DNA of 64,000 bases from Opitutales bacterium. GTDB lineage: Bacteria; Verrucomicrobiota; Verrucomicrobiia; Opitutales; UBA2987. This document shows positions 6,385-13,473 of this stretch, piece after piece. The translations under genes were made by a program, and so were the position numbers. The stretch spans positions 768,001-832,000 of the forward strand of contig CBDDEL010000017.1 of NCBI GenBank assembly GCA_965226885.1, read 5' to 3'. The notes under the pieces are model-generated. The model was not told the DNA's origin and ran no database searches. It saw only the letters and a list, made by a program, of their open reading frames with translations. Within the stretch, counting starts at the first letter, position 1, and every line of letters begins with the position of its first letter.

Positions 6385-8139
6385 ATGAACCAATCTCATT
6401 CGCCCAAGACGAATAACCCTAATATTTCCAGCAAACTAGAAAAAAAACTAAACGCCCCACCCAAGGAACAACCGCAAGTCGATGTCAACCCGGAGCAATT
6501 GCACCGAGATGCCCGCGAACGGGCCAAGAAGCAGCCCATTGTCCAGCGGATGGTCAAAGCGCTGAAAAAGGATACGGCGCCATTTCGGGAAATCATCATC
6601 AATTCAGAGCCTCTGGAGCAGCGGGTGGCATTGCTGGTGGAGGGCATCCTGGAAAAGTTCGAGATCGAGCGGATCGGCGAAGACCGCATGGTGGGGAGTA
6701 TTTTCAAGGGGAAAATTCAAAACCTGGAGCCTGGGTTGAAAGCGGCTTTTGTCGATATCGGGCAGCCCAAAAATGCCTTCCTGCACTATTGGGACATATT
6801 GCCGGCGGCCAACGATTCGTCCATCGAATTTGTCCGCGACACGCGCTCGGCGGAGCAAAAGAACAAGCGAGACAAAATCAGCCTCAAGGATATCCCCGGC
6901 CTCTATCCGGTGGGCAAAGAGATCGTTATCCAGGTGACCAAGGCCCAGATCGGCACCAAGGGCCCGCGCACCACCACCAACATTGCCTTGCCGGGCCGCT
7001 ATCTGGTGCTCATGCCATTTTCCGGACAGTGCGGAATATCCCGTAAAATTGAAAATTACAAAGAGCGGCAGCGGTTAAAGAGAATTCTACGCAAGCTGAC
7101 CATACCGGAAGGCATGGGAGTCATCATCCGCACCGCAGGGGAGGCCAAAAAAATCCGCTATTTCATCCGCGATTTGCATATTATGCTGCGCGAATGGGAG
7201 GAAATCCAGAGCCGCCTGGAGGAGGCCAAACAACCAGCCCGCCTTTACCAGGAACCCGATATTATCGAGCGTACGGTGTGCGACTTTCTAACCGAGGAGA
7301 TCGACCGGGTGCTCATCGACAACCCGGAAGACTATGAGCATATGTCCGAATTGGTGGCTGGCATTTCACCACGATCCAAGGGCAAGATCAACCACTTCAA
7401 CGAAAGCATCCCGATCTTCGAACGTTTCAATATCGAGCGCCAGATCGAGCAAACCTTCCAGCGCACCGTGCCGCTGCCCTCGGGGGGGGAGATTGTGGTC
7501 GAGGAAACGGAGGCCCTGGTCGCCATCGACGTCAATACCGGGGCCCATAAAAACAAGAACGGTAACGGCGGAAATTTCATCCTTCAGGTAAACCTGGAAG
7601 CGGCCCGGGAAATCGCCCGCCAAATTCACCTGCGCAATATCGGAGGTTTGATCATCATCGATTTCATTGACATGAAACAGCGCCGGGACCGCAATAGCGT
7701 TCTCAAGGTAATGCGCGACAAAATGTCCAAAGACAAAGCCAAGTGCCACATATTGCCCATATCCCAACTCGGCATCATGCAAATGACGCGCCAGCGCCAC
7801 AAAGAGAGTTTTTTCTCCGGCATCTACACCGGCTGCCCCTATTGCACGGCCCGCGGCATCGTTAAATCACCCCGCAGCATGAGCGTCGAGGTGCAGCGCA
7901 GGCTGGTCAGTGTGCTGCGGCGCTTGCGCGGCGGCAGCGATAAGCAAGAAGATCAACCGCTCAACCTGCGGGTGCTGTGCCACCCCAGCATACTGGAAAG
8001 AATGCGCCTGGAAGACGAACCCCACCTGATCGAGCTCGAAGACCTCTACAATGTCCGCCTCGCCTTCCGCGCCGACCCCTCCCACCACGTCGAAAATTTC
8101 ACCATCCTCGACGCCGTAACCGGCCAGGAAATGCGCTAG
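6385..8139 (+). CDS. Rne/Rng family ribonuclease (RNase E/G)
   Basis: S1 domain [44 protein letters not shown] Zn-link. Confidence 0.95.
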
Positions 8140-8622
8140 GGTTTAGTAAATCCGTGCCTCCGTGAGAAATAATATTTCCCGTCAGGCAACAAATATGTAT
8201 TTCAGGTAGCAACATTGGTTTTGCATAATACAAAAAATTTTTCGTCAATTATGATCTGCTTTCAATTTCAATTGAGCGCCTTTGCAAGAAATCATCAAAT
8301 TTATGATGGCAAGTAATCTCTTTTAAATGTTTCTTATTTTCTAACCTAATTTTAAATATCGTATAAAGATCGGTTCCGGGAAATTTTTTTGCATGGGAAT
8401 TCGCGGCACCAATAACTCCACTAATACTTTGTGAAAGAAATTTACGGTCTTTTATATCAATTCCTATTTCATCATATATATCTATGAGAATGATACTCGA
8501 TTTTCTCTTATCTTGGGATGATTTCTTAGTTTCGCAAATATTCGCTGTATTTATCCAATATATTTTTCCATCATAAACATCAATATCTATGATTTCAGCG
8601 TTGAGATTCAAATAATAATTTA

Positions 8623-8920
8623 GAGGCTGTCCCAAAAACCCGAATTTTGCGAATTGAAATATTCGACTCCGAACTGTATGGGAACGTAAGTCATTCAATT
8701 CCGTCAAAAACGCTGTATAAGGCCTCTTTTCGTTATAAATATAATCGCGTCAGACAGAGGTCTATGGTAGAATTGTATTTGAATATGCAAAACAAGAGAA
8801 AGGCTGACGGTGTTATAGACATCGAAATTGCCCAAAATCCTCTAAAAACGGTCTTTATAACAGCTTTATAAACAAGTTAACTCACTGTAAAACAAATGGT
8901 TATAACTTTGGGACAGCCTC
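8623..8920 (+). mobile_element. 298-bp MITE, family A
   Basis: TIRs; duplication TAATTTA. Confidence 0.93.
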
Positions 8921-9389
8921 TAATTTAAGTCTAACGAACTTCCCTTTAGAGGGGCTTCAAGCATTGTTTCTCGACTCTTCCCCGTATATTCGACAATTCC
9001 AAAATCAGATATTTTAACAAATATATACCCAGAAGATATAAGTTTTAAAATATTAAAACTTGTAGATAACCTTGATATGTTACACAGTTCAGAAAATTTG
9101 TAGACACCTTCAATACCGCCGTCTTTTATTATATTTATTACAATTTCATCAGGCAGTAAAAATTGAGCAGAAAAACGATTTGCTTCAGATTCAAGTTGAT
9201 GATAAGTTAAGTCAGCAAAATAAGAGTCCCACTCACCTGAATATTCGCTCGGTTTACAAGCAAAATTTCCTACATGCCAAGGGATTAAAATAGAGGCTGT
9301 CCCAAAGTTATAACCATTTGTTTTACAGTAAGTTAACTTGTTTATAAAGCTGTCATAAAGACCGTTTTTAGGGGATTTTGGGCAATTTC

Positions 9390-10191
9390 GGTAGTGTATA
9401 AAAAAAGAATGTTATTTTGTATTTTTAGCTTTACAAATAGCGTTAGGCAGTTTATTCTTAGTGCATGGTTACTAAAATTATTAATTGTCGGCACTGTGGA
9501 AGTGAAAATATCATTAAATTTGGCAAGACGCCCAACCATAAACAGCGCTACCGCTGCCATGATTGTGGTAAACAAAGCCGCGAAAACCCCACAGTGAAAT
9601 ACACCGAAGAGCAAAAAGAAATGATCCTTCGAGTCTATCAGGAACGCAGCAGTCTACGCGGTTTACAGCGCGCCTTCGGGGTGAGTCCCAACACCGTTTT
9701 GAGTTGGTTAAAAAAAACGACAATCGCTGCGACCGCTCAAAAGCACGATTCTTGCGGCCCGCCGCCATGATGTCATTGAACTGGACGAACTGTGGTCTTT
9801 TGTGGGACGCAAGAGCGATGCCCAATGGGTTTGGATCGCTCTTTGCCGACGCACCCGTCAAATCCTCTCATATGCCATTGGGCCTCGGGATTGGTATCGT
9901 TGCCGGGAACTTTACGAGCGTCTGCCACGGGCCTACAAAAGATGTGCCACCTACAGCGACTTTTGGTCCACTTATGATGAAGTCTTTCCTCATAACCGAT
10001 CCGTGGGAAAAGAAACCGGTGAAACGGCCCATGTGGAACGATGGAACAATACCCTGCGCCAACGACTGGGTCGTTTCACACGCAAAACCCTCTCCTTTTC
10101 CAAGCTTAAGAGTATGCATGAAACCTGTCTGAGACTTTTCATTCATCAATATAATCAAGAATTAGCCACCATTCCTACTTAATACACTACC
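9390..10191 (+). mobile_element. IS1-family element (802 bp)
   Basis: TIR GGTAGTGTAT, 8-bp TSD GCAATTTC. Confidence 0.93.
9465..10182 (+). CDS. IS1 transposase InsA/InsB, frameshifted at an A8C run
   Basis: Zn ribbon CRHC..CHDC plus HTH; Ins[10 protein letters not shown]...SDFW...[12 protein letters not shown]. Confidence 0.88.
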
Positions 10192-10648
10192 GCAATTTCG
10201 ATGTCTATAACACCGTCAGCCTTTCTCTTGTTTTGCATATTCAAATACAATTCTACCATAGACCTCTGTCTGACGCGATTATATTTATAACGAATAGAGG
10301 CCTTATACAGCGTTTTTGACGGAATTGAATGACTTACGTTCCCTTACAGTTCGGAGTCGAATATCTCAATTCGCAAAATTCGGGTTTTTGGGACAGCCTC
10401 TAAAATATGCCCTAATTCGTGTCCCAAAGTAAATGTTTTTCGGGTATCCGGTAGTTGATCATCAAGGATTATTAATGGCTTATTTTTATTATTTTGATGT
10501 GCAATTAGAATTGCATCTAAATTGAAAGGAATTTGGTCATATACAACATCAGCAAACTCTCGAATAACCTCCTCAATATTAAAAGGAGGTTTTAAATGTA
10601 GGCGATTAAGCCACGCATTCGCTAAATTTTCTTCAGATTTCATAAATC

Positions 10649-10960
10649 TTAAAGATAGGCTTTACTTCGTAACCATTCTTTAAGATTTTCCGAATCTTGC
10701 TGAGATTGAGATCTAGCGGCGAGTAAATGTATTTCAGGCCAATCAGCATCATTTACATTCTCGCCTGTTTTCTTGTGATAAAGGATTGATCCTAGTGCAT
10801 TGGGATTTTCGACCCATAAAGCATATTCATCAAAAGTCAGTCCAAGATAATCATGAAGTTCAAGATCTGAATCAGATTGATGCCAAATTTCAACGTACTG
10901 TGAAATAGCATCTTCAAATTCTAAACCTTGAAGAACTTTTTCTATGAAATTCGTTTTCAT
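10649..10960 (-). CDS. Acidic 103-aa protein, candidate antitoxin/immunity partner
   Basis: Start overlapped the toxin stop (ATGA) before the IS1 insertion; 5 nt from the peptidase start; LHDYLGLTFDEYALWV and LLAARS motifs. Confidence 0.75.
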   Translation of the reverse strand: MKTNFIEKVLQGLEFEDAISQYVEIWHQSDSDLELHDYLGLTFDEYALWVENPNALGSILYHKKTGENVNDADWPEIHLLAARSQSQQDSENLKEWLRSKAYL

Positions 10961-10965
10961 TTTAA

Positions 10966-11767
10966 GGTAGTGTATAAAAAAAGAATGTTATTTTGTATTT
11001 TTAGCTGTACAAATAGCGTTAGGCAGTTTATTCTTAGTGCATGGTTACTAAAATTATTAATTGTCGGCACTGTGGAAGTGAAAATATCATTAAATTTGGC
11101 AAGACGCCCAACCATAAACAGCGCTACCGCTGCCATGATTGTGGTAAACAAAGCCGCGAAAACCCCACAGTGAAATACACCGAAGAGCAAAAAGAAATGA
11201 TCCTTCGAGTCTATCAGGAACGCAGCAGTCTACGCGGTTTACAGCGCGCCTTCGGGGTGAGTCCCAACACCGTTTTGAGTTGGTTAAAAAAAACGACAAT
11301 CGCTGCGATCGCTCAAAAGCACGATTCTTGCGGCCCGCCGTCATGATGTCATTGAACTGGACGAACTGTGGTCTTTTGTGGGGCGCAAGAGCGATGCCCA
11401 ATGGGTTTGGATCGCTCTTTGCCGACGCACCCGTCAAATCCTCTCCTATGCCATTGGGCCTCGGGATTGGTATCGTTGTCGGGAACTTTACGAGCGCCTG
11501 CCACGGGCCTACAAAAGATGTGCCACCTACAGCGACTTTTGGTCCACTTATGATGAAGTCTTTCCTCATAACCGATCCGTGGGAAAAGAAACCGGTGAAA
11601 CGGCCCATGTGGAACGATGGAACAATACCCTGCGCCAACGACTGGGTCGTTTCACACGCAAAACCCTCTCCTTTTCCAAGCTTAAGAGTATGCATGAAAC
11701 CTGTCTGAGACTTTTCATTCATCAATATAATCAAGAATTAGCCACCATTCCTACTTAATACACTACC
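10966..11767 (+). mobile_element. IS1-family element
   Basis: 802 bp, TSD CATTTTAA. Confidence 0.93.
11041..11758 (+). CDS. IS1 transposase InsA/InsB (frameshifted)
   Basis: Near-identical to the other IS1 copies. Confidence 0.88.
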
Positions 11768-12003
11768 CATTTTAAATACAATCTCCTTCCCTTTGATGCC
11801 AGTTTTATAAAAGTTCCATTAACTGGATCTGCTGCACCAAGATGATGACCTCTCTCATCATATACTTCTATTTCACCATGTAATCCGTCCCATGTATAGA
11901 ATCTCTTTCCATCATTACTTCTCCATACTTTTTTATTTTTCACTACCTTCACCGACACCAAGTTGTCCAAGTAACATGGCTTCGGTCGTGGTGTATATGT
12001 CAT
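11755..12003 (-). CDS. Standalone colicin E3/pyocin S6-type cytotoxic RNase domain (78 aa native, +4 aa from IS1)
   Basis: KRFYTWDGLHGEIEVYDERGHHLGAADPVNG matches the colicin E3 YEWDSQHGELEGY..G.HLG..DP.TG motif; D/H/E catalytic residues present. Confidence 0.82.
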   Translation of the reverse strand: MTYTPRPKPCYLDNLVSVKVVKNKKVWRSNDGKRFYTWDGLHGEIEVYDERGHHLGAADPVNGTFIKLASKGRRLYLKWVVY

Positions 12004-12155: not shown

Positions 12156-12268
12156 CCTGCGGTCTCTACCGCAGGGAGGTGACTGAAGGGAAAGTTTGAA
12201 AACCGTAGGTTTTCATGGGGCATGTGGCTTTTCTGACCTCACATACCCTGTGGTCTCTGCCACAGGGT
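12156..12268. repeat. Pair of REP/IS200-like hairpins
   Basis: CCTGCGGT-CTCT-ACCGCAGG (12156-12175) and ACCCTGTGGT-CTCT-GCCACAGGGT (12245-12268). Confidence 0.65.
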
Positions 12269-12285: not shown

Positions 12286-13473
12286 TTAATCGGGCAATAT
12301 TTTGAAGAAGGTTCTTTTGCCGGCTTGGAGGGTGGTTTTTTGGTTGGGTTGGGGGCGTGATAGGGTTTGTTGGGGGTCTTCGGTGCGTTGGGTGTCAACT
12401 TTTACGGCTCCTTGCTGGATGAGGCGGCGGGCTTCTTTTTTGCTGGGGAAGAGGTTGGTGGCGGCCATGAGGTTGAGGAGGGTGTCCTCTTCTTTATCGG
12501 TTAGGTCGCTCCATCGAAAGGCGGGCATGTCGTCGCGGGTTTGGCGGCGGGTGAAGACTTTTTCGAATTGCTCCCTTTCGTGGCGGCCGGTCGCTTCGTC
12601 GTAGAGTTTGGCCGTCATTTCCTGGGCGAGGTTTTTTTTGGCTACCATGGGGTGCCCGGTGGCGAGGCTTTTAAATTGTTCCTTGGAAGCGAGAAGGAGG
12701 AGGCGGTGGTATTCGCCCATGGCCTCGTCGCTGACGGACATGATTTTGCCGAAGATGTCTTTGGGGCTGTCGTTGAAGGCGATGTAGTTTTCCATGCTTT
12801 TGGACATTTTTTTGACTCCGTCGAGGCCGACGAGGAGGGGCATGGTGAGGACGATTTGCCCTGGTTTGCCTTCGGTTTTTTGCAGGTTGCGGCCCACCAG
12901 CATGTTGAAGAGCTGGTCCGTGCCGCCCAGTTCGATATCGGCCTCGATGGCGAGTGAGTCGTAGCCTTGCACCAGCGGGTAGAGAAATTCGATGATCGAG
13001 ATGGGGGTGTTGTCCTTGTAGCGTTTGGCGAAATCGTCCCGCTCGAGCATGCGCGCGACCGTCATCCTGCGGGAGAGGGCGAGGGCGTCCTGGAAGGTCA
13101 TTTTCGTGAACCACTCGCTGTTATGGCGAACGGTGGTTTTGTCTTTATCGAGAATTTTGAAAGCCTGATCGAGGTAGGTGCGGGAGTTTTCCGCGATTTC
13201 CTCCTTGGTCAGAACGGGGCGGATGGCGGAGCGCCCCGAGGGGTCGCCGATCCAGGTGGTGAAATCGCCGATGATGAGAATGGCCTCGTGCCCCAGGTCC
13301 TGGAATTGCCGCAGTTTGTTAAAAACCACCATGTGCCCGAGAGTGAGATCGGGCCGGGTGGGATCGATCCCCAGTTTGACCTTCAGCGGGCGATCCTGGC
13401 CGAGCCGCTCTTGCAGGTCTAGCAGGCTGATGATGTCCACGGTGTTGCTTTGGATGGTTTCGAGGGGCGTCAT
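12286..13473 (-). CDS. tyrS: Tyrosine--tRNA ligase
   Basis: KLGIDPT..DLTLGH, YPLVQGYD, ELGGTDQLFN, KMSKS, C-terminal S4 domain. Confidence 0.97.
   Translation of the reverse strand: MTPLETIQSNTVDIISLLDLQERLGQDRPLKVKLGIDPTRPDLTLGHMVVFNKLRQFQDLGHEAILIIGDFTTWIGDPSGRSAIRPVLTKEEIAENSRTYLDQAFKILDKDKTTVRHNSEWFTKMTFQDALALSRRMTVARMLERDDFAKRYKDNTPISIIEFLYPLVQGYDSLAIEADIELGGTDQLFNMLVGRNLQKTEGKPGQIVLTMPLLVGLDGVKKMSKSMENYIAFNDSPKDIFGKIMSVSDEAMGEYHRLLLLASKEQFKSLATGHPMVAKKNLAQEMTAKLYDEATGRHEREQFEKVFTRRQTRDDMPAFRWSDLTDKEEDTLLNLMAATNLFPSKKEARRLIQQGAVKVDTQRTEDPQQTLSRPQPNQKTTLQAGKRTFFKILPD

Follow-up and report, generated by a model that had tools for sequence, protein, structure and literature searches.

A candidate toxin-antitoxin-protease module with a predicted colicin-E3-fold ribonuclease, decaying in the genome of an Opitutales bacterium

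The hallmark of the colicin E3 class of toxins is cleavage of 16S ribosomal RNA (rRNA) in the decoding centre. The described systems closest to the locus reported here are built around a peptidase. In the passages that describe CapP, a switch cysteine caps the zinc until binding of single-stranded DNA (ssDNA) shifts a loop; activated CapP cuts CapH at F82|R83, and an R83A mutant remains uncut. In VapBC52 of Mycobacterium tuberculosis, the available sections of the source (PMC13273310) describe the antitoxin VapB52 as fused to a CapP-like peptidase and as cleaving itself at an FR motif with ssDNA. A three-component COG2856-Xre-RelE/PIN system had been predicted earlier (Makarova et al. 2009, PMC2701414, in the passages that treat it). 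The locus described here lies in a 64,000-nucleotide stretch of an Opitutales genome (assembly GCA_965226885.1, contig CBDDEL010000017.1, positions 768,001 to 832,000), referred to below as the window. It comprises three minus-strand genes, for a predicted E3-fold toxin, a small acidic partner protein and a CapP/IrrE-type peptidase.

These three genes form a real, recurrent module that is inactivated in this genome. The preferred reading, held at a probability of roughly 0.55, is a horizontally acquired three-component toxin-antitoxin (TA)-protease module that is decaying here. By analogy with the systems above, it has the look of a suicide or defence switch that the protease would trigger, a mechanism drawn from co-occurrence, homology and one co-fold.

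The restored operon and its toxin gene

The module is located in a low-G+C island between the convergent genes rne (6385..8139, plus strand) and tyrS (13473..12286, minus strand). Coding G+C content is 33.5% in the island, versus 55-57% in the two flanking genes. The open reading frame (ORF) listing contains, on the minus strand of the island, an 82-amino-acid ORF with the motif WDGLHGEIE, an intact 103-amino-acid ORF, and three peptidase fragments. Two insertion sequence (IS) copies of the IS1 family and two miniature inverted-repeat transposable elements (MITEs) lie among them. Excision of these four elements in a script, with one copy of each target duplication, restores three packed minus-strand genes that encode a 78-amino-acid toxin, a 103-amino-acid partner and a 324-amino-acid peptidase. 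The restored partner gene starts within an ATGA overlap with the toxin stop, and the peptidase gene (HELGH...ESEANRF) begins 5 nucleotides past the partner stop. An earlier reading of the letters by themselves (the sequence-only reading) had proposed a hidden three-gene operon under these four elements, and the excision reproduces all three genes as it described them.

The toxin/partner junction without an IS was also seen in one contig of the public run X4. This contig joins position 10957 to 11768 and skips 810 bases, with eight letters (the target duplication) that fit either side. Because the contig makes this join, the IS-free junction is a real allele and not just a reconstruction.

The toxin gene (11755..12003, minus strand) originally encoded 78 amino acids (12003..11770, with its stop in the ATGA overlap). 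It now encodes 82, since the IS copy at its stop codon has lengthened the ORF by four residues, WVVY. The toxin matches the Pfam family Cytotoxic (PF09000) with 44.5 bits (cut-off 22 bits) and an E value of 2.1e-11, and homologues in 17 loci likewise score above the cut-off. Its match to colicin E3 chains of the PDB has an E value of 2.4e-7 (phmmer). Residues D39, H42, and E46 align, without gaps, to positions 510, 513, and 517 of the colicin E3 chains 2b5u and 1jch, the catalytic Asp, His, and Glu of E3. One matched colicin E3 entry, the ribosome complex 4v5k, has Ala at the His position. Across 35 toxin homologues, W38, D39, H42, E46, G52, and R73 are invariant. The sequence-only reading had called a colicin-E3-type ribonuclease (RNase) with a D-x2-H-x3-E motif, and both the family match and the retained positions bear this out.

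NCBIfam gave no match for the toxin, and no receptor, translocation, or secretion domain was found in its 78 amino acids. It is encoded by a gene with its own start and has no receptor or translocation domains upstream, which separates it from the colicins and S-type pyocins. Gene 1 is, as predicted from its alignments, a stand-alone colicin-E3-fold ribonuclease that retains the E3 catalytic positions and has no export or receptor domains.

The partner protein

The partner gene (10649..10960, minus strand) is intact. In its 103-amino-acid product, a helical N-domain is followed by a C-terminal tail, which carries LLAA-R83-SQ and a WL helix. No family was found for it in Pfam, NCBIfam, or PADLOC, and a search of the ESM Atlas returned unnamed clusters only. 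A word-indexed search identified 13 relatives. An exhaustive search with the single protein identified 1030 cluster representatives (50% identity) at E<=0.001, including 66 at E<=1e-10. The predicted local distance difference test (pLDDT) value of the structure model is about 90 for the N-domain (about residues 1-66) and 52-62 for the tail. Foldseek found no match to the model in the PDB at E<=0.001. VIA-align, which is independent of Foldseek, reached a best Z of 3.1 against 48,161 chains, and no immunity protein is listed among the matches of the fold searches. The absence of a solved relative does not prove a new fold.

Scans of genome and metagenome collections yielded 70 related loci. In 56 of them a toxin homologue immediately precedes the partner gene; of the 14 loci without one, seven have less than 240 nucleotides of upstream sequence. 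In most loci the toxin-partner gap is between -11 and +9 nucleotides, and where the genes overlap they usually do so by 4-11 nucleotides. The two proteins also exist as a natural fusion (database protein P0101). The toxin is basic (isoelectric point 9.8), and the partner is acidic (isoelectric point 4.5).

Co-folding of the window toxin with the window partner gave ipSAE (interface score) values of 0.80, 0.81, and 0.74, versus 0.00 for three controls. The partner has a pLDDT of 82 in the co-fold, and the runs concur in at least 89% of contacts. Of 80 solved complexes, 58 reached the mark used for co-folds, as did 2 of 110 mismatched pairs; these counts apply only roughly here because own alignments, one for each protein, were used. 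The partner side of the modelled interface consists of the invariant residues W26/H27, the segment YALWVE, and tail residues 78-79, 81-83, and 85-87. The 56 of 70 loci and the gene overlaps provide the adjacent or overlapping genes of a type II TA system, and the co-fold provides, as a model, its direct binding. The sequence-only reading had suggested that the 103-amino-acid protein may neutralise an intracellular toxin; conserved overlapping gene pairs and the passing co-fold support such a role. The partner belongs to a previously unnamed family; its helical N-domain constantly accompanies the toxin in genomes and is predicted to bind it.

The N-domain is modular. It is found fused to TIR_2 (L015, 1714-2442), DUF433 (L039, 593-1453), HD_4 (P0152), MarR (P0154), and ROS/MucR (P0180), in addition to the toxin fusion mentioned above.

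The best surviving alternative is a transcriptional switch of the CapP/CapH type, in which the partner would mainly repress the operon and cleavage would raise expression instead of releasing pre-made toxin. Autoregulation is common among type II antitoxins. In the passages that describe them, CapP/CapH, IrrE/DdrO, and ImmA/ImmR all act as transcriptional switches. The partner, however, has no helix-turn-helix (HTH) or other DNA-binding family in Pfam and no structural match above Z 3.1. The added MarR or ROS/MucR domain of some homologues suggests an N-domain without DNA binding of its own. The genes are co-directional and overlapping, whereas capH and capP are divergent, and together with the missing HTH family this places the pair outside the CapP/CapH regulators. 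An E3-type RNase left unneutralised inside the cell would, moreover, require some inhibitor, and the co-fold model puts the partner on the toxin. A mainly regulatory partner is considered unlikely, and the partner is treated below as the antitoxin of a protease-controlled TA module.

The peptidase, the partner tail and the distribution of the module

The peptidase gene has been divided into three minus-strand fragments. Fragment 1 (10401..10643) encodes residues 1-81 and ends with HELGHIL. It matches Pfam Peptidase_M78 (PF06114) with 28.6 bits (cut-off 22) and an E value of 1.3e-6, and the PADLOC capP model with an E value of 3.6e-10. Fragment 2 (8923..9285) encodes residues 82-202, with IPWH, the conserved Cys, and ESEANRF. 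It matches PADLOC capP (E 3.8e-7) and, being a fragment, reaches only a sub-cut-off 16.8 bits (E 0.006) with M78. Fragment 3 (8249..8614) encodes residues 204-324 and the stop. It is a family-specific C-terminal part that matches no Pfam family and aligns over its whole length to the C-terminal part of intact homologues. Taken together, the fragments align end to end with intact homologues of 314-351 amino acids, which score 46-57 bits with M78 and conserve HELGH and E-x-EANRF. The M78 and capP matches uphold the earlier call of an ImmA/IrrE protease.

The IrrE/CapP three-domain fold was examined in the closest intact homologue (L001), whose model has a pLDDT of 87.7. Foldseek aligned it to IrrE (3dti, E 1.6e-8), to PprI with ssDNA (8sln, E 4.8e-8), and to CapP (7t5t, E 2.4e-7) over 254-265 alignment columns, and the three-domain fold was found. 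The family profile matches CapP with an E value of 2.4e-12. A conserved Cys of the family, 12 residues past the second His of HExxH, aligns to the switch Cys of CapP (7t5t), a position at which IrrE has no Cys. Gene 3 thus encodes a zinc peptidase of the IrrE/CapP type, and the alignment predicts that it has the cysteine switch of CapP.

Partner homologues can be sorted into two forms, one of about 100-116 amino acids with the tail and one of about 70-88 amino acids without it. The tail contains [LIVM]-A-A-R-[ASG] and a ...WL..tGRL helix. Among the best 150 of the 1030 representatives, 92 are tailed, 56 are tail-less, and two are intermediate. Across 93 tailed sequences (the 92 representatives and the window), the motif positions are occupied by L44/I20/M12/V10, A84, A89, and R88, followed by A35/S33/G15. 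The near-invariant [LIVM]-A-A-R is the best-conserved part of the tail.

The presence of the tail was compared with that of the peptidase. Loci with an identical partner (14), with no callable start (three), or with an incomplete N-domain (two) were dropped, which left 51 distinct loci and the window; in seven of these the downstream sequence was too short for the peptidase to be scored. L007 (LLARG) was scored as tailed, and L016, with a tail-like end that lacks the Arg, as tail-less. A peptidase is present beside the tail-bearing partner in 20 of 23 assessable loci (window included) and beside the tail-less partner in 0 of 22. The partner tail with [LIVM]-A-A-R is found where the peptidase is found. 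In a tree of the N-domain alone, the tail state changes at least seven times and the peptidase state at least eight times. Close relatives show the same contrast: L032 has both tail and peptidase and L062 has neither, and L021 has both, whereas in L039 a DUF433 domain replaces the tail and no peptidase is present.

An alternative reading gives the peptidase the role that RmrA has in RosmerTA, in which case it would be a co-antitoxin or maintenance factor needed to keep the toxin inactive (for instance through its degradation) and not a trigger. The ImmA-domain protein is the antitoxin of RosmerTA in the passages that describe it, and the peptidase fragments give weak local matches to PADLOC RmrA models around HExxH (E 4e-4 to 0.05). 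The alignment of the peptidase with its intact homologues contains no N-terminal HTH, no HTH is fused to the peptidase, and the capP match is far stronger. The toxin ORF is whole in the window, where the peptidase gene is destroyed, and L006 retains a whole toxin and a tailed partner with no peptidase. Since toxin and antitoxin ORFs are whole here despite the destroyed gene, and since L006 has a whole toxin and lacks the peptidase, the peptidase is dispensable for viability. In addition, at least 22 tail-less loci pair the toxin with an N-domain partner alone. A co-antitoxin role is judged improbable, and the losses here and in L006 fit a trigger role better than that of an essential co-antitoxin.

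The joint presence of the three genes in other genomes, on which the sequence-only reading had staked itself beforehand, was found at 19 other distinct loci and in one record labelled as phage. Named records with triads come from Verrucomicrobiota, Leptospira, Planctomycetota, and Kribbella, among others. Mobile or defence genes are neighbours in several loci, among them an Eco57I/MmeI-type methylase with DUF7008 (L068), TrbI (L001), a resolvase (L028), an integrase (L032), and AbiEii (L006). The Kribbella locus (L013) is flanked by a methylase, a ResIII helicase, and an nSTAND1 NTPase. Housekeeping genes are the neighbours in other loci.

An orphan interbacterial cassette, in which a displaced polymorphic-toxin C-terminal domain and its immunity gene would stand next to an unrelated peptidase, is very improbable: colicins, pyocins, and polymorphic toxins are the best-known carriers of the E3 fold in the sources that describe it, but in most related loci, which span several phyla, the toxin is a complete 72-84-amino-acid gene that has its own start, the Pfam-scanned flanks of 25 loci and of 11 of 12 triad loci contain no secretion gene beside the toxin except the conjugation gene TrbI in L001, no relation to Im3 was found for the partner, and the peptidase gene, which abuts or overlaps the partner gene in related loci, tracks the partner tail.

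The phage-labelled record (L106, 2769-4613; MT835780.1, unverified "Bacteriophage sp.") contains a full triad with a 78-amino-acid toxin, a 105-amino-acid partner with LVA-R in its tail, and a 433-amino-acid peptidase. Upstream of this triad is a 202-amino-acid protein with an XRE-like N-terminus, as judged by eye. Orphan homologues of the partner N-domain (67-88 amino acids), with no toxin nearby, are present in viral contigs (L071-L076) and in Pseudomonas phage UFJF_PfPro (L107, 2507-2731), where the gene immediately follows the integrase. These orphans may be phage-borne decoy antitoxins.

In a soil-metagenome lineage (L043, L044, L048, L049, L055, and L060), an adenylate/guanylate cyclase gene is located downstream of a tail-less partner. 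The cyclase comes with AAA_16 in five of the six loci and with TPR in L049, and L055 is without a detectable toxin. The cyclase may be a one-lineage coincidence or a further linked component.

Mechanism, decay and comparison with known systems

The proposed mechanism of the TA-protease module is as follows. At rest, the antitoxin would keep the RNase inactive, and the cysteine switch would lock the peptidase. A signal of the CapP/IrrE type, ssDNA from DNA damage or phage replication, would open the peptidase. The peptidase would then dock on the tail and cut just before the conserved Arg, by analogy with the F|R site of CapH. This cut would strip part of the toxin interface or mark the remaining antitoxin for degradation. 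The freed RNase would cut 16S rRNA and halt translation, with abortive infection or addiction as the outcome. The role of the peptidase as sensor and trigger is suggested by CapP/CapH and VapB52. A candidate cut at LLAARS, which the sequence-only reading had named, fits the near-invariant motif, the linkage to the peptidase, and the F82|R83 precedent of CapP.

Several observations weigh against this mechanism. The module cannot operate as proposed in this genome. Three tail-bearing loci (L003, L006, and L010) lack the peptidase, and an independent-pairs test of tail against peptidase, underpowered with four pairs on supported branches, about 2.8 concordant and 0 opposite, was not significant (p value of 0.25). 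Searches of 400 other sampled genomes of the phylum yielded no peptidase relative of full length; the matches listed there are generic M78 cores that extend no further than profile position 181 of 321 and mostly cover about 44-181. The module is rare. The candidate cut site lies outside the N-domain, and because that domain is the whole antitoxin in the tail-less relatives, a cut alone need not free the toxin. Because tail residues touch the toxin in the co-fold, AAR could be conserved for binding of the toxin instead of as a site for the protease. The Arg is preceded by Ala here, versus Phe at the cut sites of CapH and VapB52.

Two non-exclusive answers to the cut-site problem can be offered. 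The first is that the tail segment around AAR belongs to the toxin interface in the co-fold model. The second is that a cut before the Arg would leave a C-terminus of ...LAA, ...VAA, or ...IAA, resembling an ssrA/RseA-type ClpXP signal. The transfer-messenger RNA tag of this genome is GENEYALAA and clpX is present, and the partner homologue of L034 reads ...EYALAA|RAES. In the passages on RseA, cleavage at a specific site leaves VAA exposed at the C-terminus and the fragment goes to ClpXP; exposure of such a degron in the present partner would be the equivalent step. Ala-Ala or Val-Ala ClpX degrons have also been described on antitoxins, in the passages concerned. A two-step fuse can tentatively be drawn from this. 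The ssDNA-opened peptidase would cut Ala|Arg, the ssrA-mimicking C-terminus would direct ClpXP to destroy the toxin-bound N-domain, and the toxin would be released. Tail-less pairs would then be plain TA modules and phage N-domains decoys. This fuller version is a speculative extension, clearly less probable than the TA-protease module itself.

The copy in the window is the only one in its genome, and its decay can be followed element by element. IS copy B (10966..11767, plus strand) is 802 base pairs in length and is inserted exactly at the toxin stop/partner start, with 8-base-pair duplications at 10958-10965 and 11768-11775. It has split the antitoxin start from a ribosome-binding site formerly inside the 3' end of the toxin gene. 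The core of MITE copy 2 (9293..10400) interrupts the peptidase gene after codon 81, with 7-base-pair duplications at 9286-9292 and 10401-10407, and is itself split by IS copy A (9390-10191, 802 base pairs). The core of MITE copy 1 (8623..8920) forms the second break, with 7-base-pair duplications at 8616-8622 and 8921-8927. No intact peptidase gene was found in this genome, its three pieces resulting from the two MITEs, one of them IS-bearing. Because the two MITEs destroyed the peptidase gene, the proposed trigger is gone from this genome.

Contigs from X4 (record 20) and X7 (record 26) have a match that ends exactly at 10401, the MITE boundary, followed by sequence that matches nothing in the stretch. 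Such ends are compatible with strains that carry a MITE-free peptidase gene, an allele that is not claimed here.

IS copies A and B differ at 7 of 802 positions and, by repeat finding, have 8-base-pair target duplications. Their products are InsA with a zinc ribbon and DDE_Tnp_IS1 (Pfam). In the 5.48-Mb, 17-contig assembly, blastn hits to the 802-base-pair IS number 258 and include 178 near-full copies (~96-99% identity). This spread of the IS1 family is a very large recent expansion, and the locus is one further casualty of it. The two MITEs are each about 312 base pairs long with 21-nucleotide inverted ends and 7-base-pair target duplications. Near-full copies of the MITE number 18, all on contig C17 (about 729-895 kb) or contig C4, so that the element is clustered and not genome-wide.

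A promoter scan of the locus was at chance level, with 14 sites versus 11.7 +/- 3.0 in shuffled sequence, and no promoter is claimed. Two similar GC-rich hairpins (CCTGyGG..AGAGACC..CAGG) are present at 12245-12268 and 12156-12175, between the tyrS end and the toxin gene. These hairpins at the island border may, from their sequence, be terminator or REP-like elements.

If the TA-protease reading is correct, the ribosome-cutting fold of colicin E3 works as an intracellular TA toxin, and its cognate antitoxin family is large (the 1030 representatives above). The module would be a natural split version of CapP and VapB52, with the sensor-protease, the substrate tail, and the toxin-binding domain on separate small proteins that are easily expressed. 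This layout would make the long-open question of on-demand antitoxin removal directly testable. The near-invariant [LIVM]AAR would be a precise and mutable prediction of the cut site, and possibly of degron exposure as well.

No literature on an E3-fold toxin in a TA or protease-linked module was found, although supplementary lists of CapP neighbourhoods or NetFlax could hold the triad. RelS-RelI was considered as a precedent and set aside, RelS being RelE/ParE-like and not E3-fold. The sequence-only reading did not recognise the triad as a named system, and this stands in part: neither PADLOC nor NCBIfam has a name for it, but the concept has precedents in the COG2856 prediction of 2009 and the fused VapB52.

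Among the more distant systems, colicin E3/Im3 is alike in the fold family of the toxin, the Asp/His/Glu positions, and the pairing of a basic toxin with an acidic inhibitor. Unlike colicin E3, the toxin described here has no receptor or translocation domains and presumably acts inside the producing cell, and its inhibitor is helical and has no detectable relation to Im3. RosmerTA (RmrT/RmrA), in the passages that describe it, is alike in having an ImmA-type peptidase within a TA or defence module with varied toxins. RmrA is an antitoxin with a fused HTH, whereas the locus has a separate small antitoxin and only weak RmrA matches, which places it outside RosmerTA. In toxin-antitoxin-chaperone (TAC) systems the third gene encodes a chaperone, whereas here it encodes a protease.

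CapP/CapH, IrrE(PprI)/DdrO, and ImmA/ImmR share the M78 zinc site and the IrrE/CapP fold with gene 3. Of these, CapP/CapH is a regulator pair with links to CBASS and further defence operons. CapP is closer, with its aligned switch Cys and the PADLOC capP match, and the partner Arg fits the F82|R83 site of CapH. The substrate differs, CapH being an HTH repressor and the partner the predicted binding partner of a toxin. The CapP/CapH genes are divergent from the operon they regulate, whereas the partner and peptidase genes are downstream of the toxin gene and run with it. The residue before the Arg also differs, as noted above, and the peptidase has an extra family-specific C-terminal part.

The passages on VapBC52 (PMC13273310) describe a CapP-like cysteine-switch peptidase that cuts an antitoxin before an Arg with ssDNA as the trigger, and release of an RNase is proposed there. 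The difference is that VapBC52 combines a fused, self-cutting antitoxin-peptidase with a PIN tRNase, whereas the present module has separate genes, an unrelated antitoxin domain, and an E3-fold toxin. The 2009 prediction (PMC2701414) is similar in that a COG2856 protease would cleave the antitoxin of a neighbouring toxin. Its antitoxins are Xre-HTH proteins, often fused to the protease, and its toxins are RelE/PIN; the E3 toxin and this partner family are absent from the passages concerned. The locus is best read as related, in split form, to CapP/CapH and to VapB52 of M. tuberculosis, and its outline was foreseen in 2009.

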